Of a stretch of DNA of 64,000 nucleotides, positions 12,758 through 42,587 are shown in pieces. Position 1 is the stretch's first letter. Every line of letters begins with the position of its first letter. The notes under the pieces are model-generated. The model searched no databases and was not told the origin of the DNA. It worked only from the letters and a program-made list of their open reading frames with translations. The stretch comes from Escherichia coli. GTDB taxonomy: Bacteria; Pseudomonadota; Gammaproteobacteria; Enterobacterales; Enterobacteriaceae. The translations under genes were made by a program, and so were the position numbers. Where the stretch lies: assembly GCF_009931435.1 (NCBI RefSeq), contig NZ_CP043414.1; one strand, given 5' to 3'.

Positions 12758-14872
12758 TTAATCAGCCACTAATAGCGGACTAGGGATACCAGATGATGAA
12801 ACAAACAGCCCTTTTACGGCACGGGTTGCAGCCACATGCAGTAACGCGCGCTCATTAAATAATGCATCACGCTGTTCAACGGGATCATCGGATGCTAATG
12901 CTTTTATTTCCGGCACAACGCCTTCGTTAATCCCCACCAGGAACACATACTGGAACTCAAGCCCTTTAATACGGTGCATCGTTGCAACTCGCACGCCTGG
13001 GCGTGCATCGCTGTCACCGCTATCATTGCCTAAATTAAATGTCTCAATTCCGGCGTCATTGAGTGCTGATGCGTAGCGGTCACAAGCATGTTTAGTACGC
13101 GCAGTAATGCAGATATCCTGAGAACGAACCTGATTCGCCAGCAATGCCTGAATTTGCTTGACGAGTGTTGCAGCCTCTTCTTTGAAATCTGCCGCATGCG
13201 TAATCATGGGCTTTTCCCCGTGCAGTAATGACAAATAATCATTACTGGTATCCGCTTCGCCATCGAGGTTATCAACCTTCACACCAGTTAACAGCCCAAC
13301 AGCAAATTGACGCGTCTCTTCTGTGGTCCGATAGTTAATCTTCAATTTTTTACTGCGACGACCACGGACGTTAATACCACACTGACCAAGAACGACCTTA
13401 TTGCGATAAATACGCTGATGCCCATCCCCGACAATAAACAGATCGTTGGGCGACTCGGGAACCAGGCTGCGAATAAGAGTAAATGCCGGGGCACCGATAT
13501 CTTGAGCTTCATCGACGACAATACTGCTATAAGGTAGTTGGACCTGCTTTTCTTTAAACAGAACAATAGCCTCATGCATGGCATCGCCCATTTCGCGCAG
13601 TTTGGCACGCGCCATTTGTGCTCTGAATTCTTCGAAAACTGGCCAGATTTTCGCCCGTTGAATACGGGATAACGCTGTACCACGTCCAACCCGGCTGACT
13701 TTGAGGTATTCCTCCCGGGTGTAAACCGCATTTGGCTGGACAACGCGTTGCCACTCTTCAGCATAGAAATTGTCAGGTAGCCCCAGTTCGGCAGGTGCCT
13801 GCTGCAAGGCATAGTTCCAGCATTTACGTCGCCCTTCATCGCTGTCGTATACCACGCGGAAATCATAACCGTGGCGTTTTAGTTGGTCGCTCATCCAGGC
13901 ATCAATGTTAACGACGTCAATACGCGCCATCTCTTCTCGCGTACACAACCGCTGGAGATTAGCGCGAATATCTGCCGCCAGGTTACGCGTAAAGGTCGTG
14001 AAAAGTACCTTCTTACCGGGTTTATCTACCAGACGCTGAGATAACCACCGCGCACGGTGCATTGCAACAACCGTTTTCCCTGTACCTGCACCGCCCAGTA
14101 CTCGTACCGGACCATTAGCGGGCGACTCCACCAGTTTTCGCTGGCTCGGGTGCAGAAATACACGCCATTTTTCTAAAGGCGCATTAAGCATCTGCAATAG
14201 TTCCTGTTCATTTTCAACGACATGGAAGCGACGTTTACTTCGTTCAATCGCCTCCATAAAGTCGTTGGTATCAACAGGCTCATCACGATGATCGTTAAAC
14301 TCTTCCAGCACTTCCTGGTAATCCAGCCCTTCTGCCAGCCAGTGCAGAGGTTCCCAGGCTTCTGCTGGCATTATGCTTTCAAGTTGATTAAGCCCGGCTT
14401 CATCGGTAAGCGCCATCACCTGATCAATAAAGACAGGCGGCACACCCAGGGCCAGAATCTGTTCCGCGCTGTAAGCTGCGAAGAGTTTCGGTTTATCAAC
14501 CACCGTTTCCGCTGCCGGTTTGATATAGCTAATATCAATGACCTGAATCGCGCCAGTAACCGGGTGAATCGAACAATCATGCCGCCGCGCCCAGTCATAT
14601 GCTTCGTCGTGTTTATCCACCCACATCAGCATATACAGAGCACCCTGTTCAGGTTTCAGAACAATGCCGCGATAAGTTTGATCGATTCGCACCGAATGGA
14701 CATTTTTACTGCGCGCATCGTGGATCTTTTCATAGTTAAGTCCATTACTGGTCGGGTCCTGACGGAATTTGGAGATGAATTCCTGCACCTTTTTTTGCTG
14801 TGCTTTTGGGATCCGCGCGAATGCGCCCAGAAAACCATCAGAAAGTGCCACCTTGGGCGTTTGCACCGTCAT
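12758..14872 (-). CDS. UvrD/Rep-like superfamily-1 helicase with an extra N-terminal domain of about 200 aa (last gene of the DISARM-like operon)
   Basis: SF1 helicase motifs in order: Walker A GGAGTGKTVVAMHRA, VVDEAQDIG (motif II), FIVGDGHQRIY (motif III), KINYRTTEE (motif IV), ATMHRIKGLEFQYVFLV (motifs V/VI). The N-terminal region (...NVHSVRIDQTYRGIVL...) is not helicase-like. Its start overlaps the stop of the upstream giant gene by 4 bp (ATGA-type coupling). Confidence 0.7.
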   Translation of the reverse strand: MTVQTPKVALSDGFLGAFARIPKAQQKKVQEFISKFRQDPTSNGLNYEKIHDARSKNVHSVRIDQTYRGIVLKPEQGALYMLMWVDKHDEAYDWARRHDCSIHPVTGAIQVIDISYIKPAAETVVDKPKLFAAYSAEQILALGVPPVFIDQVMALTDEAGLNQLESIMPAEAWEPLHWLAEGLDYQEVLEEFNDHRDEPVDTNDFMEAIERSKRRFHVVENEQELLQMLNAPLEKWRVFLHPSQRKLVESPANGPVRVLGGAGTGKTVVAMHRARWLSQRLVDKPGKKVLFTTFTRNLAADIRANLQRLCTREEMARIDVVNIDAWMSDQLKRHGYDFRVVYDSDEGRRKCWNYALQQAPAELGLPDNFYAEEWQRVVQPNAVYTREEYLKVSRVGRGTALSRIQRAKIWPVFEEFRAQMARAKLREMGDAMHEAIVLFKEKQVQLPYSSIVVDEAQDIGAPAFTLIRSLVPESPNDLFIVGDGHQRIYRNKVVLGQCGINVRGRRSKKLKINYRTTEETRQFAVGLLTGVKVDNLDGEADTSNDYLSLLHGEKPMITHAADFKEEAATLVKQIQALLANQVRSQDICITARTKHACDRYASALNDAGIETFNLGNDSGDSDARPGVRVATMHRIKGLEFQYVFLVGINEGVVPEIKALASDDPVEQRDALFNERALLHVAATRAVKGLFVSSSGIPSPLLVAD

Positions 14873-17800
14873 TTGTCACCTCCGGACAGATGTTGCAATG
14901 TATTTTCGTCAATTGGCCCGAATGCAACGTGCCAACCCCTGGTTGTGAATAATGGAATAAATTCTTGATTATCAATAATCAATGCCCATTTTTGTGATGG
15001 CCAGGCGAGATCGGCTTCCGCAATAATTTCACCTTCATCATTTTGCAATTCGTAGCCGAGAGTCGGCGCAGAGAGAGAATGAGACTGAAGCAACGCGATC
15101 TCTTCAGCGCTTAATAAGCCAAACTCAATAATCTCAGCCCAACTTTCATCAGTCTCTGGTACTGCCTCTGGCGTTGCCGTAACTTTAACGTCAACGCTTT
15201 CCTGCGGTAAATGTACGGCTTTACGGCTGGTAAAGGTCATATCCGGCAGGAACTGTAACAGGTTTACCAGTCGCCAGAAGCCATTGAGTCCCGCTTCATA
15301 ACCGTCATCCTGCGTATAGCGATCGTCAAAACAGATATGCAAACGCAGCCAGCTGCGCATTTGTGCGACACTGGTCGTCGGTTTAATGGCTTGTTGTGGC
15401 AACACCGAAGCCAGCTCAATAAATTGCTGCGATGAGTTACAGCTATCGAGTAAACCACCAAAGACAAACGGTTCGTCTGGCAAAAGCTCTGCTAGCCGCC
15501 AGTCTGGCGCGTTTTCCTGCATTTCATAGGCATACTTTTGTTTCGTTCCCGCGTCCTGTGACTTCTTCACATCCAACCACACCCAGGCATGTGCAGCAGC
15601 CATTTTCTGCCATAACTGCGTTCTTCCTCCCGGCTCGGCGAGATAATCCAGCAGCAGTGCAAAACTGTTGCGTTCCCGGAACGACGCTTCAAGGGCCGCA
15701 AAGTTGGTATCGTGAAACAGGTTATAAAACTTAGGCTGTTTCATATCCGGGTTATGCCCAAGCCCCAGGACATCCTGAACATGTTTAAGCCCAGGCTCTT
15801 TGAGATCGGCCCACGTGACTGTCCACACCCAGAAATTACCGCTATCCCGAATCGCCTGGCGTTTTTGCACATCCTCTGCGACGCTATTTTTGTGAAACGC
15901 AAAGCCATCAAGGAAAATAGCTACCGGTTTAATGGCATCAGACTGCATAAGCGGATATAGCACGTAATCCGGGCGACAAGGGATCCCCACAGCCTCTTTA
16001 GCGCCTAAATCCACCTGAGCTTTAAGATGCCAGCTCATCATCGGTTCGCTGCGGGTGTTAATAATCCACCCAGCGCCCTGATGCGCGTAACTGCGACTGA
16101 CAATCAGGTTTTTATTTTCTTGCAGGCAGCTAATAAACCGTTTTTCCAGCTCACTGCCCATCATGGCTTCGAGGGAAATGTTTTTGATGGAATCAATTAC
16201 CCGTATCGAATCTCTTGCCTGCAAAATTTTCGCCAGCAAGAGACGCGCCTGATCGCGGGAGACATACTTCATGCGCCCACGGTCACGGTAAGCGTAAACG
16301 CAACGATAACAACCATCTTTATGCGTATCATGGTTGCAACTGCATTCCACTATCGCCTGATAGGCCAGTTCAAGTAATTTCAGCAAATTGTCGGGAGTGC
16401 GCATCAGCTCTTTAAGAGAACCAGTCCCCCCCGGGACGGTATCGTAAATCACCAGATACTGCCGCCAGGATTCGCCTTCATTTTCCGGCTCGCGGTACAC
16501 AACGCCTTTCAGGTGATCGACATTCCCCTTGAAGTAATGTTTAAGGCCGAGCTGGATCGCCGCCCCAAGAGAAGCCTCCACGACACGGTCATTACTGTAA
16601 CTGCTTACCGGGAGCAGAATTCGCAACGCTTCTGACTCCAGCTGGCGATAGAGATAGAGATAATCTTCGAACTTCGCCTTTTCCGGTTCCGTGCGATATT
16701 TGCAGCTCAAATCATGACGTGGTTCATGATCGCGAGGACGCTGTACCATGCCGCACCCCAGGCAAACTTTAAACCCGGTTCGCTTCTTCGCTTCTCCGGC
16801 AATCATCAACTCATTGGCATCATCCGCCATTTTGCCGAAGTTGATATCCCGCAGGGTGACTTTGCTTAAAAATTCAAAACCAAACGGAACTTCGCCTTCC
16901 TCAATCGCGTATGCCGCCGATACATCTTCTTTTTCGAAACTAACCAATAGCTGACGCTGGAAGAAAGCAGGTTCACGGCTGTCGCTCTCGTCGCTGATCT
17001 GGCTATCACGTGCGCTGGCGCGGGCATACACCTGGCGAAGTTTCAGCAGCGTGGTTTTTTGTCCGGCGTCGGCCCACCCCGGTGTGCCACATTTCGGGCA
17101 ATATTTATGCTGGTCGCCCGTCTGGTCGATATTTTCGCTGTAGTTACAGTGGCTACAGATACGCCAGTTCTCCGGCTCAGAGACCTTCAGGTCTATCTGC
17201 TCAATTTCAACTTTATGCCCACCGGCATAGAAATTATTCAGCGGAGCCAGCTCAGCCAGCGCCGTTGATGCCGGGCGTTCATATTCGAAAGTGGTGTTTT
17301 GATATTCACGCGCTTCCCCGCCTTCTTTACGCCGCCAGAGCACAGAACGTAACGTAATACCGGCTTCCGGGAAGGCGTAGTTAGGCAGCAGACCTTCATC
17401 CGTGAGGAAATTCAGCGTCTGCTTATTGTTGATTTGATTGACTAGCGCCATCAGCGCCTGCCGTTCTGAAGTTAACTCGCGCATATCGCTGTCAAAGTTT
17501 TGATCGCGCGGCGCGTTCTCCAGCTTATCGATACTGCGCTTGAGTTTATCGATGCGTGAACGCAGAGATTTGCGATCTTCCACCAGCAGTTTTAACGCCT
17601 CTTCGATACGCTGCACCAGAGAGCGTTGTCCTGGCGCGCCCTGAAGATAAGACAACAACTGTTGGCGAGTTTCTGCGGCAAGATCGGGGAAGATCGCCGT
17701 AAATTGTGCAGCAATCTCCGCATGATGCTGTTCGATATATCTCAGTAAGTTATACGGAAAACCCGATTTACGCCCGAACTCCAGCTCATCCAGCATCTGT

Positions 17801-20800
17801 TTGACGTTTTTACAGATAGCGGATTCTGGTACACCGGTTTTCACCCAGTTATCCATACAAAAAGCTGCCAGCTGGCGTTCGAGAATAGCCGTTGCATTGA
17901 GGAAGACGCCAGGAGCCTGCACCTGGCCCTGCATCATCTCCAGCGGTTCTTCAAAGAAAAACTGATCGTGCGGGTTCCCTTCTGCCACGGTAATGTTTAA
18001 CGCGTTACCATCTTTACGACCGGCGCGACCAATACGCTGCAAGTAGTTGGCCTGAGCAGGTGGGACAGAACAGAGTAAAACGGTGGAAAGATCCCCAACG
18101 TCAATACCCATCTCCAGCGTCGGTGTTGCCGACAACAGGTTGATATTCCACGGTTGGTTGCCACGGTAGAACGATTTTTCGGTGGCTTCGCGATCTTCAC
18201 GGCTAAGCAGCCCCGTGTGTTCTGCGCCCTGCACGCGCGCGATGTCCATGTTCTCCCAACGCCAGGTCGCCATATTGTCGACTTCCTGGTAACGACCTTC
18301 ACAACGTAAAGAGAGACAAGGCGCATTACGCCACTGCCAGCCTTGATCGGCCGGAGCCCGGACAACCTCACGGCAACATGAGCAATTAAGCTGAACGACG
18401 TCACGGCTCACCACCAGCGCCGAAGGCACCAGTCCCCAGGCTTCACGCCCTTTGGTGTCAAAATCTTTTACTACTCCGGCTATTTTCAACGCCGTAAACA
18501 GGCGTCGTAACACTGTTTCCGCAACGCTACTGATAAACAGATTATTGCCGTTACTCAGCGTGCGATTGATCCAATGCTGATACCAACTGGGGTTAGACTT
18601 CGCGCCAATCAGGCGATGGAAACCATTAATTTTTTCAAACGACGCATAAGCCGGTTTACGCGTTTTCGGACCGATAGAAGGCATATAGCGCGATGTACGC
18701 TCTTTTTGCGTCATCATAAAGGTCGTGCCATCACGGCGATAACTTTCGAACGCCGGATGCATAACGGCCCCGGCCTGGCGTTGATACCAGATAACCCCCA
18801 GCGCCAGGTGCGCTACCTGCTCGACGCTCACACCGGACATCTCATCACCCAGCTCTTCACAAAGCTGTTGATGCAGGGCGGTAATTGCCGGATTAAAGCG
18901 TTCTTTATCCACTCCGGCAACGGCATAACCGGTGGCTTCCAGCGTACGTCCGATACGCGCGCGCAGGGTAAATTCGCTGTACACCTCCCAGTCGAGGCGC
19001 AGGGAAACCAGCTCCGGCAGATCGGAGTTCTCCGCCAGTTTGCCTTCATTTTTCAGTGTCTGATAATCATTCAGCCACTGCATATTTGGTGCGATGAAGT
19101 TCGCTGCAAAATGAGCATCGTCCGGTGAACGTTCACGCGTTTGTTGGCAAACACGCGCCGCGAACGCATCCAGCGGTAATGTCTCTTTTTCGCCAAGAAC
19201 ACTGGCGATTTGCCCACGAATCATCAGCGGCCAGGTTCGGGCAGTAAAAAAGCTGGCACGATGCGCGGCGTCTTGTACCGAGTCAGAAAACGTAATCAGC
19301 TTTTTATGTTCGTTGAACTGGCTGCCATAAAGCTGGTGAATCATCACCGCCGACAAACTGGCAGCCCGTGACCCCAGAATCGAAATCCCCTGTTTGCTGT
19401 TGCAGTACGGGCATTCATTAGCAAACTCCAGCTCGTCCTTACGCTCTTTGAGCATATCCGGGATCAGTACCTGCAACAGTTCCGTATGACCGCAATGTCC
19501 ACACTGGACGCTGGACTGTCGGTTCAGTTTCAGACAGGTAGGGCACAGTTTCTGGTGTGCGCCACTGACCGCTTTTTCGTTGTTATCCGGGAAAGCAAGG
19601 ACGATGGAGCGCCCTTTTTCAAAGAACTGGCGATAAATGCCGTCGAGGTCTGTTTCCAGCTGAACGCTTTGCCCATGACGCAGGCTGGCCCAGCCAGTTG
19701 CGTGGCAGTCACGGCAGTGGATAACCGGCAAATAGTGTTCGCGGTCTTCCACCGCCACATCATCGGCAAACACCAGTCTCGGCGTTTTCGCCACGCTGGC
19801 GACCAGACGACGCATCTCACGAAGCCACAACTGGGAGCGCAGTTGCACAAACGGCAGCACCGGGCGCGCTTTCTTCGCCTGGAGACGTTTTTGCCGATCG
19901 TGTTCCATTTCCGGTACTTCGAGACGTGCCTGTGCGATCAGCGCCAGAATGCTTTGCAGCACGCGTCGGGCATGGTCGGCGCTTTCTGCCAGCATAACCT
20001 GGAGATTTTCCAGACACTCTCGTTCAGAGAGGATCCCGCCTTGCAGATCATGGAGTAAGACATGCATCACGCTGTGGCGGCGTAACAGTGACCCCAGCGC
20101 AATACGCTTTTCACGCCCGTCGTCGCTCTCCAGATCGTCCGGGAGTTGCAAGTCGCTGTCGGGGAACCACAAAGGGATTTGCCCGTTAAGATACGCTACC
20201 GGGGTAGCGTAACTCTGCGGGTCCAGGGCCGAAGCGACCTCCTGCCCCGGATACTGACTGTACGCAATGGCGTAATCCTGCAAGTACTCCGCTGCCGTGT
20301 AGCGATCTTCGCGAATAACGGCGTCATCGGTAAACGGCTGGTCAAAGATTGTTTTTGCGTAATCGAGCAGTTGCCCCAGTTCGTCGCCGACGGTCGCTGA
20401 TGTCCCGACACAGGCGAATCGTTGGTTATCCACACCTATGTGATGCTTCAGACGTCGCACCAGACAGGCCAGATCCGACCCTTGCGCGCCATCAAACGTA
20501 TGCAATTCATCCACGACCAGGTAGCGCAATGAACCGGGCTGGTTGTAACGCCAGAGCGGCTGATCGCCAGGGCGCATCAGCAGGTAGTCGAGCATTTTGT
20601 AGTTGGTCAACAGGATGTCCGGCGGGCTTTCGCGCAGCGTGTGCTTGCAGGTAATGACCTTTTCTGCCGACATTTTTTTGCTGGGTTCGATTTCGCTGTC
20701 GCCGACAAACAGGCCGACGGTCACCTTGCCATGCAGTTGTGGATCGCTGGCGATGGTTTTGGCGAAACGGCTGGCCTGATCGGTTGCCAGGGCGTTCATC

Positions 20801-21210
20801 GGGTAGATGATAATCGCTTTAACCCCGGCTTGTGACGCGCCCGCGCAGTGGTTGAGCAGCGGGAACATAAAACATTCTGTTTTACCGGAGCCGGTACCGG
20901 TAGCGACCAGTGTCGGCTGTGGCGCGTCGCTTCCCAGACGCTGAAATGCCCGGGCCTGATGCGCGTGCGGCGGGAACGGCAGCGTCAGATTAGGGAAAAA
21001 ATTCAGCGGTAAGTCACTTTTACGAAACGGCAACTGGGCGGAAAGGTATGGTCCTTTCAGCAGCGTTTCCGGCTGGGCCAGAAATTGCTCCAGCATTGAG
21101 ACATTATCGTTATTCTCACCGTTAAACAGCGGGCTGTTTAGCGGGAACGCCGCCCGTAAAAAGGCGGCAACGCTGTCGGCGACCTGCCGACTGACAACGG
21201 ACGGCAACAT
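14869..21210 (-). CDS. Giant 2113-aa fusion protein: N-terminal DEAH-box SF2 helicase, DUF1998-type zinc ribbon, and a C-terminal restriction-endonuclease-like (Vsr/DUF559-like) module (DrmA+DrmB-like or DruE-like)
   Basis: Helicase motifs GTGSGKTECFMFPLL (I), VVDELHTFDGAQG (II), VGTSATV (III), QRIGRAGRKDG (VI). Cys clusters CSHCNYSE...YCPKCG and ECSCNHDTHKDGCYRCVYAY are typical of DUF1998. C-terminal segment RPDYVLYP...VAIFLDGFAFH...D..KRQAIRDSGNFWVW resembles a PD-(D/E)xK Vsr-like nuclease. Start overlaps the methyltransferase stop. Confidence 0.7.
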   Translation of the reverse strand: MLPSVVSRQVADSVAAFLRAAFPLNSPLFNGENNDNVSMLEQFLAQPETLLKGPYLSAQLPFRKSDLPLNFFPNLTLPFPPHAHQARAFQRLGSDAPQPTLVATGTGSGKTECFMFPLLNHCAGASQAGVKAIIIYPMNALATDQASRFAKTIASDPQLHGKVTVGLFVGDSEIEPSKKMSAEKVITCKHTLRESPPDILLTNYKMLDYLLMRPGDQPLWRYNQPGSLRYLVVDELHTFDGAQGSDLACLVRRLKHHIGVDNQRFACVGTSATVGDELGQLLDYAKTIFDQPFTDDAVIREDRYTAAEYLQDYAIAYSQYPGQEVASALDPQSYATPVAYLNGQIPLWFPDSDLQLPDDLESDDGREKRIALGSLLRRHSVMHVLLHDLQGGILSERECLENLQVMLAESADHARRVLQSILALIAQARLEVPEMEHDRQKRLQAKKARPVLPFVQLRSQLWLREMRRLVASVAKTPRLVFADDVAVEDREHYLPVIHCRDCHATGWASLRHGQSVQLETDLDGIYRQFFEKGRSIVLAFPDNNEKAVSGAHQKLCPTCLKLNRQSSVQCGHCGHTELLQVLIPDMLKERKDELEFANECPYCNSKQGISILGSRAASLSAVMIHQLYGSQFNEHKKLITFSDSVQDAAHRASFFTARTWPLMIRGQIASVLGEKETLPLDAFAARVCQQTRERSPDDAHFAANFIAPNMQWLNDYQTLKNEGKLAENSDLPELVSLRLDWEVYSEFTLRARIGRTLEATGYAVAGVDKERFNPAITALHQQLCEELGDEMSGVSVEQVAHLALGVIWYQRQAGAVMHPAFESYRRDGTTFMMTQKERTSRYMPSIGPKTRKPAYASFEKINGFHRLIGAKSNPSWYQHWINRTLSNGNNLFISSVAETVLRRLFTALKIAGVVKDFDTKGREAWGLVPSALVVSRDVVQLNCSCCREVVRAPADQGWQWRNAPCLSLRCEGRYQEVDNMATWRWENMDIARVQGAEHTGLLSREDREATEKSFYRGNQPWNINLLSATPTLEMGIDVGDLSTVLLCSVPPAQANYLQRIGRAGRKDGNALNITVAEGNPHDQFFFEEPLEMMQGQVQAPGVFLNATAILERQLAAFCMDNWVKTGVPESAICKNVKQMLDELEFGRKSGFPYNLLRYIEQHHAEIAAQFTAIFPDLAAETRQQLLSYLQGAPGQRSLVQRIEEALKLLVEDRKSLRSRIDKLKRSIDKLENAPRDQNFDSDMRELTSERQALMALVNQINNKQTLNFLTDEGLLPNYAFPEAGITLRSVLWRRKEGGEAREYQNTTFEYERPASTALAELAPLNNFYAGGHKVEIEQIDLKVSEPENWRICSHCNYSENIDQTGDQHKYCPKCGTPGWADAGQKTTLLKLRQVYARASARDSQISDESDSREPAFFQRQLLVSFEKEDVSAAYAIEEGEVPFGFEFLSKVTLRDINFGKMADDANELMIAGEAKKRTGFKVCLGCGMVQRPRDHEPRHDLSCKYRTEPEKAKFEDYLYLYRQLESEALRILLPVSSYSNDRVVEASLGAAIQLGLKHYFKGNVDHLKGVVYREPENEGESWRQYLVIYDTVPGGTGSLKELMRTPDNLLKLLELAYQAIVECSCNHDTHKDGCYRCVYAYRDRGRMKYVSRDQARLLLAKILQARDSIRVIDSIKNISLEAMMGSELEKRFISCLQENKNLIVSRSYAHQGAGWIINTRSEPMMSWHLKAQVDLGAKEAVGIPCRPDYVLYPLMQSDAIKPVAIFLDGFAFHKNSVAEDVQKRQAIRDSGNFWVWTVTWADLKEPGLKHVQDVLGLGHNPDMKQPKFYNLFHDTNFAALEASFRERNSFALLLDYLAEPGGRTQLWQKMAAAHAWVWLDVKKSQDAGTKQKYAYEMQENAPDWRLAELLPDEPFVFGGLLDSCNSSQQFIELASVLPQQAIKPTTSVAQMRSWLRLHICFDDRYTQDDGYEAGLNGFWRLVNLLQFLPDMTFTSRKAVHLPQESVDVKVTATPEAVPETDESWAEIIEFGLLSAEEIALLQSHSLSAPTLGYELQNDEGEIIAEADLAWPSQKWALIIDNQEFIPLFTTRGWHVAFGPIDENTLQHLSGGDK

Positions 21211-24200
21211 CAGGCGCTCTCCTTATCTTGTGCAAAGAACGCCCAGGCCACTTTGTAGTCGTCTTCGCGATCCGGCTTGATAAACGGTGCCTGCCAGGTG
21301 ACGGTACGGCGCTCGCCTTCGTCGCTGCGGGTATAGTCATCAAAGGTGACGCTGACGGTACCGGTTTGCAAATGTTTGACATCATCCCAACCGATGGCTT
21401 GATCGGTGCAGTCACCGCCGGTCCACTCCGGGCTGTCGACGTTAAAGACAAAGCCGTTTTTCAGGTCAGCTTTACGCGCGGTGCGAGGCAAGCCAACGCC
21501 CACCAACCCTTTGCTTGGGGTAAAGATGATGCGGCCGTTTTGGTCGTACCAGGTGTCCGCTTCGTACTGACGCATCACCGGGAACTGTACACGGTAAATG
21601 GTAAGCAGCTCTTCGAGGGTTAACCCCAGCGCCTGTGCCACCAGAACGTCGATTTCCACCAGCGCCTGACGACGACTGTAGTCGGAGCGTAAGGCACAGT
21701 TACGCTGCCACTCTGGGGTCAGATTGGCGAAGAAATCTTGTGGGAGCTGCGGGAGATCGCGGCTCCAGCGTTGGGTATTGAAGTCTGGGGTGTAGCAGGA
21801 TTGCCAAAGGCCAGCATATACATCATTTACAGAATTTAATGATAATACTAAGCAGTATAATAATGCCTTTTGTCTCGGATTGAATAATACGTATGAGAAA
21901 CCATCAAGCATCTGATGTAAGTTTGCCTTGCCAGTAGATTTACAAATAAAATCAAAAGGTAAAGAAAAACACATACCTGAATGTTCGAGTAACTGATTCT
22001 GTGAGCTATAGCAGTAAGAACGTACTGCGTTCATGTGACTTATTTCTGGCGGATAAATAGCACTAATTAGTGTACGTTCCCCCGATTGAGCCAACATGGC
22101 TCTGATAGCTAAGCGATAATAATCTGTTACCTTCTTCGGTTCATCTTCAGCCAGTTCAGTCCATGTAACGCATGGAGTACGTTTGGCATACTCCTGTGCA
22201 TCACAGGCTGGAATATAGTTAGTGCGCGGCAAATAGTCGTCGGGCAGAGTTAGCAAGTCTAGGTTATCGTATGCTTTATTCGTGTCACAAACCGCTCTAG
22301 GCGTATTGTAGAAAGGATTGCCAACAAAAAAATGAGGGCCAGACAAAACCCATTGTGATGCTTCTTCCGGGAACTGTGTATGTCGCTCAATTGTACCATC
22401 GCTTTGCTGATTAGTTTCATGCCACATTTCTAGAGAATAATATTGCCCCTGCAAATCACCTAATCGCCTAGGTTGTTTCGCAAACTTTTCAAGTACTGTA
22501 ACTAATTGTGTAGCATGCAACGCAGGAAGACGGGCTTCCTGGGCAGGAGTTCCGACAACATCATAAAGACGCGCAAAAAGACCCAACTGTTTTAAATTTA
22601 TAGGCACGACTCGATCGAAATGTCCCTGGAAATTCCATTTAACTTTTACTTTGCCATCGATTTCAGTTTCTTCTTTTATCCCCGGGACAATGCCTTCCCC
22701 TTTATGTTCAAAACACGCGTCAATAGTTTGAGGAATAAATAAATTTGCTATATTTGAGAATGCCACTATCTGAGAATAGGGGCCATATACATTGATGCTA
22801 AATCTAGTGTGATTATCTACTTCAGCAAATATTTTAACTTCATTGGCAAATTGAAAATGCGCCCTCAACCTCGGGTACACTGCCGCACGCAACTGCCCAC
22901 CTTTCGGGTCATCATAAATCCCTTCCGGGTGCAGGAAGCCTGCCACGCCTTTCTCTGCCCCTAAGCGCCATGCCTGCGGCAGGAAGCATTTATACAAGTT
23001 GGTCTGCACCCCGCGCAGTACCGGGTAGTTTTGCTGCGCATTGAGGAAGTTTTGCATCCCTTCACAGCCTTCATACTCGCTGCGCCAGGCCGCTTCCAGC
23101 GCTGGGATCTGGTTAAAGGTATCAACACGCAACGTTGCCAGCTTCGATGCACTCAGCTTACGCAGCACAAATTCCGGCTCGTAATCACCCAGCACGCCCG
23201 CTTCCTGCCATTCCACTTTTAGCCACGGCGGGTTTCCGAGCATCAGGTCAAAACCGCCGCGCTCGGCAAACAAGTCGCAGAACTCCAGATCCCAGTGGAA
23301 GAAACGGTGCTGCTTTCTCAGGGCATCGACAATCGCCAGACGCGGCAAATGGCGGAACAGCACATCGGTTTTCAGACGACCAGCAACGGAAAACAGCGAA
23401 GACTCTTCTCGCAGCAGGCCTTCTTCGGCAAACAGATCGCCAGTGGTGTGATCCGCAACTTCAGTGACTTTTTCCGTGATTACAATCCCGTCGAGCAGGG
23501 TTTCAATCTCAAACAACCAGGTACCGCGATCCGGTAGCTCATCAGCTTTGTCGATCGGCCAGAACCACAGCGCGCACCAGTAGTCCATCACCCAACGCAG
23601 CTTCTGGTAGGCGCTGTTATCTTCAAGACGACCGCTAAAGGTTTCATCTTTACTGCTCAGCGAAGAACGTGTCTGCTCGCTGTTTTCTGCCGGCCACACC
23701 GGGTAGCTGTCGGCGGTTTTCAGACGTTCTGCTTTAAGTTGCTGGCGATAGGTGTTCCACAGTGCTTCCACCTTTTCGCTGATACGCTGCACATCAGCAA
23801 TCTCATGCCCGGCAAAGCTTTTAATAAACTCTTTGCGCCAGCTGTCCAGCGCTTTGAAGTCATCCGGATAACGCTGCTTAACAGTTTTATCGCTGTAATT
23901 AGCCATACCGCCGTCGGGCAGCAGGAAGTGGAAAATCTGCGTCTCTTCACGCGGCGTGTTCATCGCCAGTTCGACCGGCTCGCTGTTAAGCCAGCTCGGA
24001 TCTTTGACTTTTTTGTAGGTCAGTTCGCTCTTGTTGAACACCTGACGGCGCGCGCCCACCAGCGAGTTACCGCAGTGCAGCTGGTAACCAAACCACGGTA
24101 CAAAGGCATCGCCACTGATGGCGTTCAGCCACAGTGACACTTCCGCCAGCTCCACCGCCACCGGGTTTAAGTCCACGCCGAAAACGTTGTTGTCGGCAAT

Positions 24201-26144
24201 GTACATTTTCACCCGCTGTAACTCCTGGGTGTAACGATCCTGCGGAATACGTCGACCTTCCGCCTGCTGTTTGTGGAACAGATACGCTTCCGCCAGCTGG
24301 TTGATGGCTTCGTTAAGGAACGCCGCGCTGCCCATCGCCGGTTCGCACACGGTGAGGTTTAAGATGGCATCAGCTTTGGCGTGCGGATCGCTAATGGGAT
24401 CAATCTGCTCCTTAAACAACTCTTTCAGGGCATATTTAACCAGTGAGCGGGTCAGCACTTCCGGGGTGTAATAAGAGGCAGATTTCTCACGGTCGCGTCC
24501 GGCCATACGGTAGATAAAACTGCCTTTGCGGTGAATGCGCAGGCTGCCGTCTTTCTCGTAGACCTTCTCGTCTTCGTGGTATTTGCCAATCTCATCCTTA
24601 CTGACGAAGTAACCCGTCTCCAGCTCGTTAAACTCTTCTCCGGCTTTCTTCACCTCGTAGAGATCTTCGCTGGCGAAGAATCCGCGATAGGAGAGCAGTG
24701 CCTCATACACCGCACCCAACTGGTTGATACCCAACTGGCGATAAGAAATACGTCCGCGGCGGTTAAAGCGCTCTTTGCCCGGGCGGCTTAACGACATCGC
24801 CTGGATAATCTGTTGCAGGGTTTCGTTACGGAATACCACGCGGTTAAGAATGCGCGTGTTGTTGGCATCAAACAGATGACTTTCCAGACGCGGGACGCTG
24901 AACTGATGACTATGGATGGTGATCCGGTCGCCGCTCTCCAGGTCACTCTGCATTTTCACGCCGCCGTTGTAGCCTTCGCGCACCAGTTTAAACAGCATAT
25001 TCAGGCTGTCGTGGAAGTAGCGCCCGTTGCGATCTTCTTCGCTGGTCAGCGGGATCATCTCCAGATCGCGCAACGTTTCCAGGCTGTAACCTTGCAGATA
25101 GGTTTTGGCGGTCATCGGCGCATAACCCAGCTCCGGGCGCGCTTCAATGTAGAACAGGAACAGCAGGCGGTACATGTAACGCAGACATTCGCGGCTCAGT
25201 TCATCCGGGTCCACCGCACGGTTACCGGTATAGTTTGCCAGGCCACGGTCGATCAGGTAATGCATCGCTTCGTTGCCCAGCAGCTCAATGCTTTCGCGCA
25301 GGGCATATTTCAGATCTTCCGACACGCCAAACGCATGTTTGTGCGAATTGTCATCCAGCGAGTCAAGATAAGGTGCCCCACTGCCCGGCAGCAGAGAATC
25401 TTTATGTAGCAACACCGCCGTCGCTTTCAGCGTATCCGTTTCACGACGACTTAAAATCTCTTCAAAATCAAAACGCAGCAGACGGTTTTGCGCCCACTTA
25501 GTACGGTCCAGCAGCAATAGCTGACGGTTACCGAGCAATAGCACAAAACGCGGAGGTTCATTTTGGGTGAAGACCGCCGTAGAGAGCAGATCTTGCCAGC
25601 TGCGATATTCACCGTTGGCTTTTTTGCGCAGGCTGTCGCGCTTATGTTTGTCGGTATCCGCCGGGAATTGCGCGGTCAGTAAAGAGAGCGCCAGCGGATC
25701 CAGCGTTCCCTCTTCCTGATCGTGTGCTTCGACAATCCACAGCCACGGGCTACCGTCAGTGCTGTTGTAACGCGCCAGTACCGGCAGCGGTGTATCGTCA
25801 TCCAGCATTTGGATCTGCGGCGTAATTTCGTAACCCAGCGCCTTTAACAATGGCTGCCAGCGATTACGTTGATCGGCCAGACGTTGCGGGATCTGACGCT
25901 GTTTTTCGTGCTCGGCAAGTTTGCGGAAAAACTCAGTCGCCAGACTGTTAAACTGGTTCCACGGAGCGCGGTATCCCGGCTCTACGTCTTTGCCCTGTTC
26001 ACGAGCGGCACGCTCCGCTTCACGCGCTGCATTTTCCTGGGCTATCCAGGGTTCCAGCACATCGCGGATATCACTGGTGAAAACCTCACCCAAATAGTGG
26101 TTAGAGTAAAATTCGTTTTCGTTATTAATACCGACCAGCGCCAT
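21210..26144 (-). CDS. Very large (1644 aa) gamma-class N6-adenine DNA methyltransferase (DrmMI/PglX-like)
   Basis: AdoMet-binding motif I (...LNLTVCEPAMGSAAFLNEAINQ) followed later by the catalytic motif IV LMLGNPPWLKVEW (NPPW), which is the gamma-class order. It has long N- and C-terminal extensions and sits 2 bp downstream of the SNF2 gene. Confidence 0.75.
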   Translation of the reverse strand: MALVGINNENEFYSNHYLGEVFTSDIRDVLEPWIAQENAAREAERAAREQGKDVEPGYRAPWNQFNSLATEFFRKLAEHEKQRQIPQRLADQRNRWQPLLKALGYEITPQIQMLDDDTPLPVLARYNSTDGSPWLWIVEAHDQEEGTLDPLALSLLTAQFPADTDKHKRDSLRKKANGEYRSWQDLLSTAVFTQNEPPRFVLLLGNRQLLLLDRTKWAQNRLLRFDFEEILSRRETDTLKATAVLLHKDSLLPGSGAPYLDSLDDNSHKHAFGVSEDLKYALRESIELLGNEAMHYLIDRGLANYTGNRAVDPDELSRECLRYMYRLLFLFYIEARPELGYAPMTAKTYLQGYSLETLRDLEMIPLTSEEDRNGRYFHDSLNMLFKLVREGYNGGVKMQSDLESGDRITIHSHQFSVPRLESHLFDANNTRILNRVVFRNETLQQIIQAMSLSRPGKERFNRRGRISYRQLGINQLGAVYEALLSYRGFFASEDLYEVKKAGEEFNELETGYFVSKDEIGKYHEDEKVYEKDGSLRIHRKGSFIYRMAGRDREKSASYYTPEVLTRSLVKYALKELFKEQIDPISDPHAKADAILNLTVCEPAMGSAAFLNEAINQLAEAYLFHKQQAEGRRIPQDRYTQELQRVKMYIADNNVFGVDLNPVAVELAEVSLWLNAISGDAFVPWFGYQLHCGNSLVGARRQVFNKSELTYKKVKDPSWLNSEPVELAMNTPREETQIFHFLLPDGGMANYSDKTVKQRYPDDFKALDSWRKEFIKSFAGHEIADVQRISEKVEALWNTYRQQLKAERLKTADSYPVWPAENSEQTRSSLSSKDETFSGRLEDNSAYQKLRWVMDYWCALWFWPIDKADELPDRGTWLFEIETLLDGIVITEKVTEVADHTTGDLFAEEGLLREESSLFSVAGRLKTDVLFRHLPRLAIVDALRKQHRFFHWDLEFCDLFAERGGFDLMLGNPPWLKVEWQEAGVLGDYEPEFVLRKLSASKLATLRVDTFNQIPALEAAWRSEYEGCEGMQNFLNAQQNYPVLRGVQTNLYKCFLPQAWRLGAEKGVAGFLHPEGIYDDPKGGQLRAAVYPRLRAHFQFANEVKIFAEVDNHTRFSINVYGPYSQIVAFSNIANLFIPQTIDACFEHKGEGIVPGIKEETEIDGKVKVKWNFQGHFDRVVPINLKQLGLFARLYDVVGTPAQEARLPALHATQLVTVLEKFAKQPRRLGDLQGQYYSLEMWHETNQQSDGTIERHTQFPEEASQWVLSGPHFFVGNPFYNTPRAVCDTNKAYDNLDLLTLPDDYLPRTNYIPACDAQEYAKRTPCVTWTELAEDEPKKVTDYYRLAIRAMLAQSGERTLISAIYPPEISHMNAVRSYCYSSQNQLLEHSGMCFSLPFDFICKSTGKANLHQMLDGFSYVLFNPRQKALLYCLVLSLNSVNDVYAGLWQSCYTPDFNTQRWSRDLPQLPQDFFANLTPEWQRNCALRSDYSRRQALVEIDVLVAQALGLTLEELLTIYRVQFPVMRQYEADTWYDQNGRIIFTPSKGLVGVGLPRTARKADLKNGFVFNVDSPEWTGGDCTDQAIGWDDVKHLQTGTVSVTFDDYTRSDEGERRTVTWQAPFIKPDREDDYKVAWAFFAQDKESA

Positions 26145-26146
26145 GA

Positions 26147-29005
26147 TTAACCCTCCGCTCCGGTGATAACAGCAATTACCTGAATGTAGGGTTCTTTTTC
26201 AGTCGTCATGGTGTCCTCAATCCATTCAATATAGCTGTCAAAATTGTGTTCGATTTCGCGTTGTCTCTGCTCTTTACGGCTCTGCTTAACTGACAATTGC
26301 TGTTTGTTATCGGCAAAATCCAGCTCAAGTTGGCTCAACTGCCGCCCACGCAAAACGTCCAGCTTTTGCAGATGCTCATTCAGTTGCTGGTTAATGTGCG
26401 TTTCAAACGCATTCCGATCATGGATGAATACCTCCCGGGCATGAGCAATAGCCGCTTCCAGTAAATCCTGCTGGCGCTGGTGATTACGATCTTTACCGCC
26501 GCTGTTAGTCAGCTTGTTACTCAACTGCGGATGACGTTGTAAAAACTCAGCAAATGGCTGACTGCCGATTAGCGATTCACGGTTAAAGCTCACCACTATC
26601 CACGGGTTCACCATCGGATGTGATTTACGGTTCGGGAATAACCCGGAAAGAATGAAGTGATCTTCATCGGGTTCAAGCAGGTATGGCAGACGGATAACCG
26701 GTGCCTGATGACGACCAAAAGCCGAAGAGATTTTATCGTCCAGCCACTGCACTACCGGGTTGATTTGCCAGAGATACTGCACATCGGGCCAGGCATGTTG
26801 CTCACCGCGAGCGCGTGCAATCGCGTCGGTGATGACGGTTTTATCCTGACTTAAATAGAGCTGCCAGTTCTCCGGGGCGATTTCAGGCGGTAGCTGGTTG
26901 AAGCGGCGGCGTAACTCCTCCGGTGCCACCAGCGACAAGGTATTATCAGGCAAGGTTTCATACTGGATAGTTTGACCACTGGCTTTCAGGTAACCCAATG
27001 CTCTTTCGCAGTACGCCTGTTCGCTGGCAAACAAGCTGGTGTCTGTTTCGGTAACCATTGAGGCATCGCTGGAAACCGCACTGCATATTTCGCCAAACAG
27101 ATCATGTTCGGCGCTTTCCGAGACGTTGCTGTTCAGCAGTTGATCAAACAGGCTGGCACCATCATCCTGCATCATGAACTCTGCAACCTGCTCTTCTTCC
27201 TCTTCCTGGGTAAATTTGCCGGTAAACTCCGAACTGTCCCCAATGTTCTTCTGCGCCTGTTCGTCTTTGTTGATCAACACTTCCAGTACGCGCATATCGC
27301 CATTGATCTGCGGTTCGCTGGCCTCGGTAAGCAGATAGCGGATTTGAGGCTGATGTTTTTGCCCATAGCGGTCAATACGCCCGTTACGTTGCTGGAATAC
27401 CATCAACGACCACGGAATATCAAAGTGAATCATTTTGTGGCTAAGGTGATGCAGGTTGATCCCTTCAGATGCCACATCCGAACAAACCAGAAGACGCAAC
27501 GGCGACTGCGTTTTACCAAAGGCTTCTACGGTTTCCATCAACACCGTATCGCCCTGATCGCCGCGCAGCGTGGCGATCTGATCATCTTTCAATTTCAGAT
27601 CCGCTCGCAGTTGCTGTTCGAGGAACTCCAGCGTTTTAATGCTTTCGGTGAAGATCACCAGGCGATCTTCCGTGTTATTGGCTTTCCAGGCGAGGTCTTT
27701 TCGGATGGTGTCGAGCAGCAACTGGTATTTGCTAAACTGGCTGGCATCAATGTTATTCAGCGCCAACAGCAATGACTCCAGTTCGTTGATCTGGCTCTGG
27801 CTATTATGATCTTTACGGCTCTCAAGACGCTTCAGACGATTAGCCACTACGCTGGCACACGCCATCGGGCTGGAAAATAGCGCTTTTTCGAGGGTTATCT
27901 TGAACAGACGACCTTTGTTAGACTGGGCCTGTTCATCGTCATCATCACGGAACTGACTCTCAACCAGGCGACGGTATGCTTCTTCTTCGGCACCGGATGC
28001 CAGGCGAGTCAGTTTGACAATATTGCGCTCGGGGAACTCGCCAGACATCTGATCTTTCACGTCTTTTTTGAAGCGACGGACAACCAGATTTTTATCGGCA
28101 AAGTCGGCGTATTCATACTCTTTCGGGTTGGCGATCGCCGTCGGGTCAAGCATGTTCATCAGGCTGGCAAAACTTTCAGCTTTACCATCATGCGGCGTTG
28201 CTGAAAGCATAATCAGCGTATCGCTGCGCCCGGCGAGCAGTTTTGCCAGTTTACTGCGTAACGAACTGGTTCCACGTTCTGCGACGTTATGGGCCTCATC
28301 AATGACAATAATATCCCACCAGGCATTTTCCAGATGGTGACGATATTCAATATCTTGTTTCAGCGTATCGATGGAGATAATGGTCTTGTCAAAATAGTGG
28401 AACGGGTTGTGGTTGGTAGGGATGCGGTTACGCACTTTTTGTAAACCAGCAGAATCCAGGCGGGTCAATGGGATCGCAAAACGGCTCCAGAACTCCTTCT
28501 GGAATTGTGTCAGCATCGATTTAACCGCCAGAACCAGAATACGTTTTCCGCGCCCACGACGGATCAGTTCCGAAACCAGAATACCCGCTTCCAGCGTTTT
28601 ACCCAGACCGACAGCGTCGGCAATGAGTATCCGCTGACGCGGTTGTGCCAGCGCCATCCGCGTAGGATCGAGCTGAAACGGCATGGAATCCATCGCCGCC
28701 AGATGTCCAAAATGGACTTTACTGTCTGTCGGTACGCGTTGGCGTAACTGACTTTCAATATACAACTGTGCCGCCTGATAATTGGCGGATTCATCTTCCA
28801 CCAAATGCGTTTTTGCGGGATCAAGGATCTCTACTTTTTGTTCCAGTTTGGTCAGAAATAACCCTTCTTTACCGCGCACCAGCTCTGAAATACCATCGCA
28901 GGTCAGCAAATACCCACCATCACCACTGTCATCCGCCCGGCGAATACGCCATTCGGCATCACGAATAACCACCCGCATACCAGGTGCATAATTTTGCTTA
29001 TTCAT
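26147..29005 (-). CDS. SNF2/RAD54-family helicase (DrmD-like), first gene of the DISARM-like operon
   Basis: ADAVGLGKTLEAG (motif I), IVIDEAHNV (DEAH), LMLSATPHDG (motif III), C-terminal QQRNGRIDRYGQK (motif VI). Preceded by a 223-bp intergenic region containing inverted repeats. Confidence 0.75.
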   Translation of the reverse strand: MNKQNYAPGMRVVIRDAEWRIRRADDSGDGGYLLTCDGISELVRGKEGLFLTKLEQKVEILDPAKTHLVEDESANYQAAQLYIESQLRQRVPTDSKVHFGHLAAMDSMPFQLDPTRMALAQPRQRILIADAVGLGKTLEAGILVSELIRRGRGKRILVLAVKSMLTQFQKEFWSRFAIPLTRLDSAGLQKVRNRIPTNHNPFHYFDKTIISIDTLKQDIEYRHHLENAWWDIIVIDEAHNVAERGTSSLRSKLAKLLAGRSDTLIMLSATPHDGKAESFASLMNMLDPTAIANPKEYEYADFADKNLVVRRFKKDVKDQMSGEFPERNIVKLTRLASGAEEEAYRRLVESQFRDDDDEQAQSNKGRLFKITLEKALFSSPMACASVVANRLKRLESRKDHNSQSQINELESLLLALNNIDASQFSKYQLLLDTIRKDLAWKANNTEDRLVIFTESIKTLEFLEQQLRADLKLKDDQIATLRGDQGDTVLMETVEAFGKTQSPLRLLVCSDVASEGINLHHLSHKMIHFDIPWSLMVFQQRNGRIDRYGQKHQPQIRYLLTEASEPQINGDMRVLEVLINKDEQAQKNIGDSSEFTGKFTQEEEEEQVAEFMMQDDGASLFDQLLNSNVSESAEHDLFGEICSAVSSDASMVTETDTSLFASEQAYCERALGYLKASGQTIQYETLPDNTLSLVAPEELRRRFNQLPPEIAPENWQLYLSQDKTVITDAIARARGEQHAWPDVQYLWQINPVVQWLDDKISSAFGRHQAPVIRLPYLLEPDEDHFILSGLFPNRKSHPMVNPWIVVSFNRESLIGSQPFAEFLQRHPQLSNKLTNSGGKDRNHQRQQDLLEAAIAHAREVFIHDRNAFETHINQQLNEHLQKLDVLRGRQLSQLELDFADNKQQLSVKQSRKEQRQREIEHNFDSYIEWIEDTMTTEKEPYIQVIAVITGAEG

Positions 29006-38500: not shown

Positions 38501-38902
38501 ACAAGCCAGTGTATGCAGATAACCCGAAGCTTGCCCCAGGTTTCTTATCTTTCTTTTCCAGTAGCGAATGCCATCATTAACCAGCTTCTGTCGATGAACA
38601 TACGGAACTTTCCAGTCAATAGAATCTAAAATTGTGTCCCATTTAGGGTGTCCGACCGTATGAGTCCGGCGGATAAACTCTGCGGCATATATGCTAAATA
38701 GAACATCGCTATAGGAAATGAATATCGTTCTTGGATAACTACGAGGGGCATATGTACGCAGTAGTTCTGCCAAACTTTCGTACTCTGTATCAGTACAACG
38801 GTAAGCATATAACGCCCGTCCATCAGCTCCGGATAATGAACGGCGACTAAAAAACATGTTAAGCCATTGCAAAAGTGGGTTAACTGGAGTTTTCACAAGC
38901 AA
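35543..38902 (-). CDS. druH: 1119-aa protein of unknown function, DruH-like partner of DruE
   Basis: Large low-GC ORF with no recognisable catalytic motif, translationally coupled to the DruE-like gene. The pairing and size agree with the two-gene Druantia type III layout as I recall it; assignment is by context only. Confidence 0.5.
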   Translation of the reverse strand: MLVKTPVNPLLQWLNMFFSRRSLSGADGRALYAYRCTDTEYESLAELLRTYAPRSYPRTIFISYSDVLFSIYAAEFIRRTHTVGHPKWDTILDSIDWKVPYVHRQKLVNDGIRYWKRKIRNLGQASGYLHTLACEGGLPIRMIENESGYLITYFRRIYQALRGQASQYPAAKIAQELGDTIPVTMQNELVYEIAGEFCETLCRLLSEHPPQSSDPVSALRKLSPDWHLQLPLVLPEANAAEIVRRLLSQSSEIRSASSLQVERIWVDVDDSWYCDARFRFPATMRTEQLTSLFECHIQPEQTRLIISGKWRNGGARLAMLSRYEQQDWRVELLPIAMQKLSGADAMAEISLSLHEGPILLGHTIPKGGYELTEELPWVFEAMNESESQLKLVGMGSVSSRLNALFISLPKNSHLDISGEGEFDIPRLLKNSERSLTKISGVFSVVLHDGAVCTIRTQQLYDSAIEYYIKSTEVELVKSDYPVHRAWPKIGWKKDLQYGIVPEKELFWRSIRSGNNAWYSVASEMPKGQIEVRRIVNDEVLFSGKVVVLPADFDINIIPESAQQGIIMLSGITDTRIDKYSNNEKVTLKSDYSQNECAIYYNSSQMLENTVDLRVSWKDGSNLKLLLPKPVSGGRFVTNDGSVHFDGVASIAHLHGIDAELLTISCAGRGYLNIELLDENPVAEKFRYLHADLPLLSGRNDKLQQISLYENYNLLNAMLACAWNSNSTLCVDFYSDRFGKDKATLNIKRYDGSFIEHDQGLLVDIKNSVVFPANRIDELVVDAISLKDPGLHKSLLKKDEFAYDLSALNVQDSPWLIVGKLDGTARIAPVIKWMLPVLQTNDLLLNALCEADPEQRKKNFNELIFEIDNNPLQNYCCLLTEYIKKYKMNNGLSLLDLDLFRGISSNYRVVVQLLISSCLSGDSDTIYDIQEELPFSWGWIPVSIWKDVFQKCWTYLEKQINDKTLALHILQPFIAFMNHRAHIDRRLAPIANMLLTYSESLPTGCDVLPTVSREQFNEAKQMLLRNPDSFGRISIFPKELWSSAITPELKSVFNKLWIEDKYHSRLEKRFNLMLVAALLTQKDNNLIHQLSALFEFHYQQAPQQLGVIYQYYFEQAGVCH

Positions 38903-40766: not shown

Positions 40767-40772
40767 TCGATC

Positions 40773-41480: not shown

Positions 41481-41483
41481 GAG

Positions 41484-42587
41484 ATGAAATTATCTATCGA
41501 CATTTCAGAACTTATTCAATTAGGGAAGAAAATGTTACCAGAAGGAGTCGATTTTTTTCTGGATGAATCCCCTATTGACTTTGATCCTATAGATATTGAG
41601 TTATCCACGGGTAAAGAAGTTAGTATCGAAGATCTTGACCCTGGTAGCGGGCTTATCTCTTATCATGGCCGCCAGGTTCTTTTATATATTCGGGACCATT
41701 CAGGGCGTTATGATGCGGCTATCGTAGATGGCGAAAAAGGAAAACGTTTTCATATTGCCTGGTGCAGAACTCTTGATGAAATGCGCCATAAAAATCGATT
41801 TGAAAGGTATCATGCAACTAACCGCATAGATGGTTTATTCGAAATTGATGATGGTTCAGGTCGGAGCCAGGATGTTGATTTACGGGTATGTATGAATTGC
41901 CTCGAACGACTTAATTATAAAGGAAGTATTGATAAACAACGAAAAAGAGAGATTTTTAAATCATTCTCATTAAATGAGTTTTTTTCAGATTATAGTACCT
42001 GTTTTCGTCATATGCCTAAGGGTATCTATGACAAAACAAATAGTGGGTATGTCGAAAACTGGAAAGATATATCTAAATCAATACGAGAAAAGGCAAATTA
42101 TGTTTGTAATGATTGTGGCGTGAATTTATCAACCGCCAAAAACTTGTGCCATGTCCATCATAAAAATGGCATCAAATATGATAATCACCATGAAAACCTT
42201 CTTGTTCTGTGCAAGGATTGCCATCGAAAACAGCCCCTCCACGAAGGTATATTCGTTACCCAAGCTGAGATGGCTATCATTCAACGTTTACGTTCCCAAC
42301 AAGGGTTATTAAAAGCAGAATCCTGGAATGAAATATATGACCTGACTGATCCATCAGTGCATGGTGATATTAATATGATGCAACATAAAGGCTTTCAACC
42401 TCCTGTTCCTGGGTTAGATCTTCAAAACTCAGAACATGAAATTATTGCAACCGTAGAAGCTGCATGGCCAGGCCTTAAAATTGCAGTTAACCTTACTCCC
42501 GCCGAAGTCGAAGGATGGAGAATATATACCGTGGGTGAGCTGGTTAAAGAAATACAAACAGGAGCCTTTACGTCAGCAACGTTGTAA
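41484..42587 (+). CDS. zorE: ZorE-like HNH endonuclease (Zorya type II effector)
   Basis: HNH motif CNDCGVNLSTAKNLCHVHHKNGIKYDNHHENLLVLCKDCH. Lies 3 bp downstream of zorB, completing a ZorA-ZorB-HNH trio. Confidence 0.6.
   Translation: MKLSIDISELIQLGKKMLPEGVDFFLDESPIDFDPIDIELSTGKEVSIEDLDPGSGLISYHGRQVLLYIRDHSGRYDAAIVDGEKGKRFHIAWCRTLDEMRHKNRFERYHATNRIDGLFEIDDGSGRSQDVDLRVCMNCLERLNYKGSIDKQRKREIFKSFSLNEFFSDYSTCFRHMPKGIYDKTNSGYVENWKDISKSIREKANYVCNDCGVNLSTAKNLCHVHHKNGIKYDNHHENLLVLCKDCHRKQPLHEGIFVTQAEMAIIQRLRSQQGLLKAESWNEIYDLTDPSVHGDINMMQHKGFQPPVPGLDLQNSEHEIIATVEAAWPGLKIAVNLTPAEVEGWRIYTVGELVKEIQTGAFTSATL

Follow-up and report, generated by a model that had tools for sequence, protein, structure and literature searches.

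A predicted Vsr-type endonuclease domain in ArmC, the long helicase of an Escherichia coli ARMADA type II locus

ARMADA type II is a four-gene defence system (armA-armB-armC-armD) described beside Druantia type III (druHE) and Zorya type II (zorABE) in a bioRxiv preprint of September 2025 (PMC12458937). Protection was direct and non-abortive, without metabolic shutdown. It was abolished by loss of any of armA-D and by the ArmC Walker A and B mutants K110A and D234N, and the methyltransferase motif of ArmB was also needed. The preprint predicted that ArmC carries an active Vsr domain, behind which come degenerate "EEP?" and Vsr-like domains, and contrasted this fused domain with the separate DrmC of DISARM. 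DruE of Druantia type III has been shown by experiment to be a helicase-nuclease that engages 3'-tailed or single-stranded DNA-containing intermediates (PMC13192584). Here we analysed 64,000 nucleotides of an E. coli chromosome (NCBI RefSeq assembly GCF_009931435.1, contig NZ_CP043414.1; the window), in which a 2113-amino acid (aa) helicase had been proposed to end in a built-in nuclease (the original prediction). We consider it likely that the segment in question is the catalytic core of an EDxHD-type endonuclease of the PD-(D/E)xK superfamily, fused behind the DUF1998/MZB domain of ArmC. The prediction of a Vsr-type domain in ArmC is already published and is independently confirmed here; because the 2025 preprint had made it, the domain finding is a correct rediscovery.

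The 2113-aa protein is, by sequence, the ArmC of ARMADA type II. The window has the published gene order armA-armB-armC-armD beside Druantia III and Zorya II, and Pfam, PADLOC and the RefSeq annotation of a syntenic locus gave both this order and the DEAD, Helicase_C and DUF1998/MZB domains, bearing out the earlier description of a helicase with DUF1998. Published ArmC (E. coli NCTC 12900, ATCC 8739 and EDL933 OI-172) has the same length, a sequence at or near identity and the same numbering of K110 and D234, which fall in the lobe 1 motifs GTGSGKT (aa 105-111) and DELH (aa 234-237). The domain series is also the same, helicase-MZB-Vsr-(EEP?)-Vsr (PMC12458937, Table S2), with a C-terminal Vsr domain and then further degenerate domains. 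PADLOC returned DruE-like matches (347 bits), and the profile of the MZB region also matched the equivalent region of the DruE structure 9tu7. The exact sequence is present in NCBI, where its cluster at 90% identity has 3981 members; public annotation still offers one name for it, "DEAD/DEAH box helicase". The features are listed in Table 1.

Table 1. Positions of the features in the 64-kb window
Feature	Residues	Position	Strand	Evidence or remark
armD, UvrD/GajB-like helicase		12758..14872	minus	PADLOC GajB 123 bits; Pfam UvrD-helicase, UvrD_C
armC, YprA-like superfamily 2 (SF2) helicase of ARMADA type II	2113 aa	14869..21210	minus	Open reading frame (ORF) and translation
DEAD/DEAH helicase lobe 1	84-278	20377..20961	minus	Pfam PF00270, E 4e-22
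Helicase_C lobe 2	993-1066	18013..18234	minus	Pfam PF00271, E 1e-10
MZB (= DUF1998) zinc-binding domain	1549-1638	16297..16566	minus	Pfam PF09369, E 9e-13
Domain 1, Vsr-like (EDxHD-type) restriction-endonuclease fold	~1684-1806	15793..16161	minus	Predicted catalytically competent
E1689 codon, upstream of core		16144-16146	minus	
First motif set	1746-1798	15817-15975	minus	
RPDYVLYP	1746-1753	15952-15975	minus	
VAIFLDGFAFH	1763-1773	15892-15924	minus	
KRQAIRDSGNFWVWTV	1783-1798	15817-15864	minus	
Catalytic core D1748...D1768-G...H1773...D1780..K-R1784		15859..15969	minus	Single regular-expression match; Vsr alignment
D1748 codon		15967-15969	minus	
D1768 codon		15907-15909	minus	
H1773 codon		15892-15894	minus	
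D1780 codon		15871-15873	minus	
R1784 codon		15859-15861	minus	
Middle domain	~1815-2009	15184..15768	minus	Mainly helical, small sheet
Terminal domain, degenerate Vsr-like	~2020-2100	14911..15153	minus	Small alpha-beta-beta-beta-alpha-beta
Terminal triad 2054/2067/2074		14998-15060	minus	
Second motif set	2065-2097	14920-15018	minus	
EADLAWP	2065-2071	14998-15018	minus	
ALIIDNQE	2076-2083		minus	
RGWHVAF	2091-2097	14920-14940	minus	
armB, PglX/type IIG-like N6-adenine methyltransferase		21210..26144	minus	PADLOC REase_MTase_IIG 954 bits, DrmMI 192 bits
armA, SNF2/BrxHII/DrmD-like helicase		26147..29005	minus	PADLOC DrmD 333 bits
druE		29229-35552	minus	PADLOC DruE3 2182 bits
druH		35543-38902	minus	
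zorA, zorB, zorE		39114-42587		Divergent from arm/dru genes
ZorE C-terminal extension	ZorE 279-358	42318..42557	plus	Homologous to ArmC terminal domain
ORF		43414-44064	minus	No NCBIfam match
Phosphorothioated-DNA-binding restriction endonuclease		44144-45073	plus	NCBIfam NF045808, 436 bits
ORF	682 aa	45696-47744	minus	No NCBIfam match
tRNA-Leu(CAA)		48422-48506	minus	Sole tRNA of the window

The Vsr-like domain of ArmC

All the motif strings that the original prediction quoted for their Vsr/DUF559-like spacing are present in the 2113-aa ORF. Because the first set maps to aa 1746-1798, the proposed interval of 15810-15980 covers the catalytic core; the whole domain, here called domain 1, is larger. 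Written as the regular expression D[FYL]..DG..xH..D..[KQ]R, the motif spacing was found at a single place when the window was translated in all six frames, and 1 of 20,000 shuffled versions of ArmC also matched it.

We assessed conservation across the family. An exhaustive search with the last 474 aa of ArmC retrieved 949 homologues, mostly proteins of ~2100 aa, from which we took 110 cluster representatives that cover domain 1 and are mutually ≤50% identical. Six residues (E1689, D1748, D1768, H1773, D1780 and R1784) are invariant in all 110, and S1686, L1688, F1692, Q1732, G1769 and D1802 show ≥99% conservation. Thr occupies position 1767 in 54 representatives, as it does in the F-T-H-G motif of Vsr. 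No Lys is conserved in strand 3 among these proteins: position 1783, which sits in a helix, has Lys in 69, Gln in 40 and Ile in one, and the invariant basic residue is R1784. The catalytic Lys of the original prediction was therefore not upheld, and the domain is of the Vsr/EDxHD type, which has none.

The active site of Vsr-like enzymes consists of D51, H64, H69 and D97 in Vsr, a composite EDxHD motif for which the equivalences between Vsr and I-Bth0305I have been given (PMC3239194). In hhalign comparisons, domain 1 aligned with E. coli Vsr at P 3.3e-4 and with a Vsr alignment at P 6.2e-5 (probability 65%, 30 columns), the latter a low-diversity, purely enterobacterial set (Neff, the effective number of sequences, 1.7) that limited the profile comparison. 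The pairing places D1748 of the RPD motif on D51, D1768 on H64 and H1773 on H69. D1780 would be the counterpart of D97, since each lies 11 residues ahead of a conserved Gly. E1689, D1748, D1768, H1773 and D1780 together spell EDxHD, with D1768 in the x position. The domain has the alpha-beta-beta-beta-alpha-beta core fold of restriction endonucleases, and its closest structural neighbours are Vsr-like; PMC12458937 reports an HHpred value of 5.2e-5 for the same domain. The alignments shown here place the family-wide invariant set, as far as sequence can tell, on the Vsr active site. Both the profile and structural similarity and the position of conserved residues at catalytic sites, on which the original prediction depended, were thus found.

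Several results weigh against this assignment. The Pfam HMMs (hidden Markov models) for Vsr (PF03852) and DUF559 matched neither ArmC nor 40 homologues; searched one by one, the 40 gave a single weak REase_MTES_1575 match (E 0.09). In a single-sequence Pfam search, the last 513 aa of ArmC matched only the tail of MZB. Sequence searches of the PDB (phmmer, and hmmsearch with profiles A1, A2 and A3) had DruE 9tu7, at the DUF1998 tail, as their sole relevant match, and neither PHROGs nor NCBIfam had a match for domain 1. A Foldseek search of the three-domain model against the PDB gave nothing significant (best TnsA, E 0.37). The ArmC family has Phe or Tyr in place of the Glu in the "ExDG" motif of DUF559, and neither of the two ARMADA papers contains an ArmC nuclease assay or a nuclease-site mutant. 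That single-sequence searches of Pfam, the PDB, NCBIfam and PHROGs find nothing in the segment would also fit a chance resemblance of the motif in a linker without any nuclease-fold domain, a reading that the conservation, spacing and profile results refute and to which we assign a negligible probability.

Alternatively, domain 1 could have the Vsr fold and be non-catalytic, serving as a sensor of DNA structure, mismatch or modification or as a module for autoinhibition or assembly, its conserved polar residues binding DNA or metal. We regard this as unlikely. The whole EDxHD set is invariant in representatives that are at most 50% identical, which is typical of active sites, whereas the terminal domain of the same protein has lost DG..H; in addition, PADLOC and Pfam reveal no other obvious DNA nuclease in the ARMADA operon.

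If domain 1 is an active endonuclease, as we favour, D1748 and the backbone of residue 1767 would bind Mg2+, and H1773 would be the general base, aided by D1780 and D1768. From the roles proposed for these four residues we infer, partly by analogy with DruE of Druantia III, that ArmC is a helicase-nuclease. Its motor would load on and translocate along phage DNA, and the fused Vsr-type domain, whose DNA-cutting activity is predicted, would nick or cut that DNA. ArmC would then be the likely DNA-cutting effector of ARMADA II. The fused nuclease would stand in for the separate phospholipase D (PLD) protein DrmC of DISARM; this part of the original prediction agrees with the same statement for ARMADA in PMC12458937. 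Its description of ArmC as a self-contained sensor-effector goes too far, because ArmA, ArmB and ArmD are required as well and ArmC is not autonomous (PMC12458937).

The need for all four genes and for the ArmB methyltransferase motif would also suit a nickase that does not itself arrest the phage. Domain 1 would then provide the helicases with entry sites or ends, by creating or processing these, and arrest would come from some other component, for example the ArmD N-terminus reported to be RelE-like, or ArmB-dependent functions. Vsr-type enzymes are single-strand nickases (PMC3239194), and ArmD has been reported to carry a RelE-like RNase domain (PMC12458937). However, direct, non-abortive defence without metabolic shutdown speaks against an RNase toxin as effector. 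Moreover, aa 1-240 of ArmD (12758-13480, minus strand) had no Pfam or PADLOC match, so that the published RelE-like domain was not confirmed, and in DruE, the closest relative, the fused nuclease serves in defence. We hold this reading to be still less probable than a non-catalytic domain. For the helicase-nuclease that we favour, the residues to change in nuclease-dead mutants are E1689, D1748, D1768, H1773, D1780 and R1784; the list contains no Lys.

A word-indexed homologue search returned only three matches when run with the ArmC C-terminus and 13 fragments when run with the terminal domain. One candidate for a free-standing version of the domain (P0155, 145 aa) proved to be what an IS21 insertion had left of an ArmC-like gene, and was rejected. 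On that metagenomic contig (L003, 1044-10438), IS21 (rve and IstB) separates a 1770-aa N-terminal ORF from the 145-aa C-terminal remnant.

The downstream domains and the ZorE extension

Domain 1 is followed by a middle and a terminal domain. We found no structural similarity of the middle domain (aa 1815-2009) to EEP enzymes, and the published "EEP" identity was not reproduced. The terminal domain contains the second motif set, which the original prediction had called a second, weaker repeat of the nuclease pattern. Its predicted model has the secondary structure helix-helix-strand-strand-strand-helix-strand at a predicted local distance difference test score (pLDDT) of ~85-94. W2070 is present in 86 of 86 homologues and W2093 in 85 of 86, the DG..H motif was not found in the homologues of this domain, and hhalign aligned it weakly with the helix/strand-4 region of Vsr (P 7e-4). 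Because of the conserved fold pattern and Trp residues, the missing DG..H and the weak Vsr alignment, we take the second pattern to mark a real, degenerate nuclease-fold domain. What did not hold is the idea of a sequence repeat: hhalign of the terminal domain against domain 1 showed no significant profile similarity (probability 1%), on which basis an internal duplication was rejected.

The terminal domain has a semi-conserved triad, E/D2054 (90%), E/D2067 (97%, 83/86) and K/R2074 (81%), which may be a non-canonical active site, although nuclease activity of this domain is probably absent. The same triad occurs in ZorE as D, E and K. Having no catalytic motif, the middle and terminal domains are more likely to be DNA-binding, regulatory or interaction modules.

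We compared the terminal domain with the C-terminal extension of ZorE, whose gene lies 27 kb away within the window. BLASTP aligned the two with 35% identity over 75 aa (E 1e-10), and an HMM built from ArmC homologues alone matched the ZorE extension (E 1.6e-16). The ArmC domain also matched the PADLOC ZorE2 model (5.7e-9) and the NCBIfam ZorE model (4.6e-5). Judged by these scores, the two are clearly homologous. A 2026 preprint described the ZorE extension as nuclease-like but unassignable, tied it to Druantia synergy and proposed that it marks a synergy-competent subset of ZorE. The link to ArmC is not mentioned in the ARMADA and ZorE literature that we examined; this side result is new and, together with the independent confirmation of domain 1 and the residue list for nuclease-dead mutants, is what we add to the 2025 preprint. 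We further entertain, as a doubtful proposal, that the last ~80 residues of ArmC and the ZorE extension are one family, defined by the triad and two invariant Trp, that underlies the synergy of the array. If so, a shared module that recognises a common DNA intermediate or partner would give the Zorya II-Druantia III-ARMADA II array a physical basis for its synergy, and the ZorE extension may track ARMADA II, not Druantia III.

The arm operon and its island

The arm genes are tightly packed. The armC stop overlaps the armD start by 4 nt (14869-14872), the end of armB overlaps the armC start by 1 nt (21210), and armA ends 2 nt before armB; these junctions suggest that the four genes are translationally coupled. 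RefSeq names the armB product "class I SAM-dependent DNA methyltransferase".

The window covers the E. coli chromosome from the fim/nan genes to tRNA-Leu(CAA), and the locus, in a leuX/fim island, is the Zorya II-Druantia III-ARMADA II island of PMC12458937 and 10.1101/2025.09.22.677730. This sequence was found at ≥95% identity in 525 of 5426 complete E. coli genomes (~10%), and Klebsiella, Salmonella, Citrobacter and Enterobacter have it too. The tRNA-Leu(CAA) probably marks the attachment site of the defence island, which runs as far as ~12.7 kb; the sialate O-acetylesterase gene beside it is annotated as truncated in the syntenic locus of E. coli SMS-3-5. Between Zorya II and the tRNA, the window encodes a phosphorothioated-DNA-binding restriction endonuclease and two ORFs without NCBIfam match (Table 1). 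In SMS-3-5 (NC_010498.1, 4887000-4916400), by contrast, the island past Zorya II has another cargo, which includes Wadjet-like genes with JetD, a WYL protein and a degraded integrase, so that its distal part differs from strain to strain.

Comparison with described nucleases and defence systems

We compared domain 1 with the nearest nuclease families. It shares the restriction-endonuclease core fold with Vsr (PF03852; PDB 1cw0) and the EDxHD homing endonuclease I-Bth0305I (3r3p). All three have a strand-2 Asp (RPDF/RPDY), the strand-3 x-G....H pattern and a downstream helix Asp, without a catalytic Lys, and the F-T-x-G context of Vsr is common to half of the ArmC family. At the position of His64 in Vsr and Asn208 in I-Bth0305I, ArmC has D1768, and its helix 1 is followed by an additional three-stranded meander. 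Where Vsr reads HGCFWHHHHC, ArmC reads DGFAFHKNS and has none of the following Cys and His residues, which are zinc ligands in Vsr. Vsr proper is a stand-alone mismatch-repair enzyme of 156 aa with dcm linkage, whereas domain 1 belongs to the C-terminal part of a 2113-aa helicase that a defence operon encodes and goes undetected by the Pfam Vsr HMM.

Two neighbouring families fit less well. Domain 1 is not a Pfam-level DUF559 domain, because the Glu of E-x-D-G...H is replaced; compared with the DUF559/NGO0050-type nucleases (PF04480; 3hrl) and REase_MTES_1575, the DUF559 HMM gave no match and only the one weak REase_MTES_1575 hit among 40 homologues was seen. Nor is it a canonical (D/E)xK enzyme with a strand-3 catalytic Lys, because position 1783 varies between K and Q, and R1784 is the basic residue that never changes.

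Among whole proteins, DruE (Druantia type III; 9tu7) is the closest helicase relative of ArmC. Both are YprA-like helicases, ~2100 aa long, that contain DUF1998 and carry at the C-terminus a fused nuclease module, which in DruE includes one degenerate copy. The nuclease domains of DruE are of the PLD type, whereas that of ArmC is predicted to be of the Vsr type, and the HMM of domain 1 had no match in DruE. DruE has DruH as its partner, whereas the partners of ArmC are a methyltransferase and two other helicases.

DISARM class 1 (DrmD, DrmMI, DrmA, DrmB, DrmC) has, like ARMADA, a SNF2 helicase, an N6-adenine methyltransferase and a DUF1998-associated helicase. PADLOC found no PLD protein among the five operon proteins, and DrmA scores were weak (49 bits). 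Whereas DISARM keeps DrmB (DUF1998) and DrmC (PLD) as separate genes, ARMADA fuses the helicase with DUF1998 and the predicted Vsr-type domain in a single protein and adds the UvrD-like ArmD.

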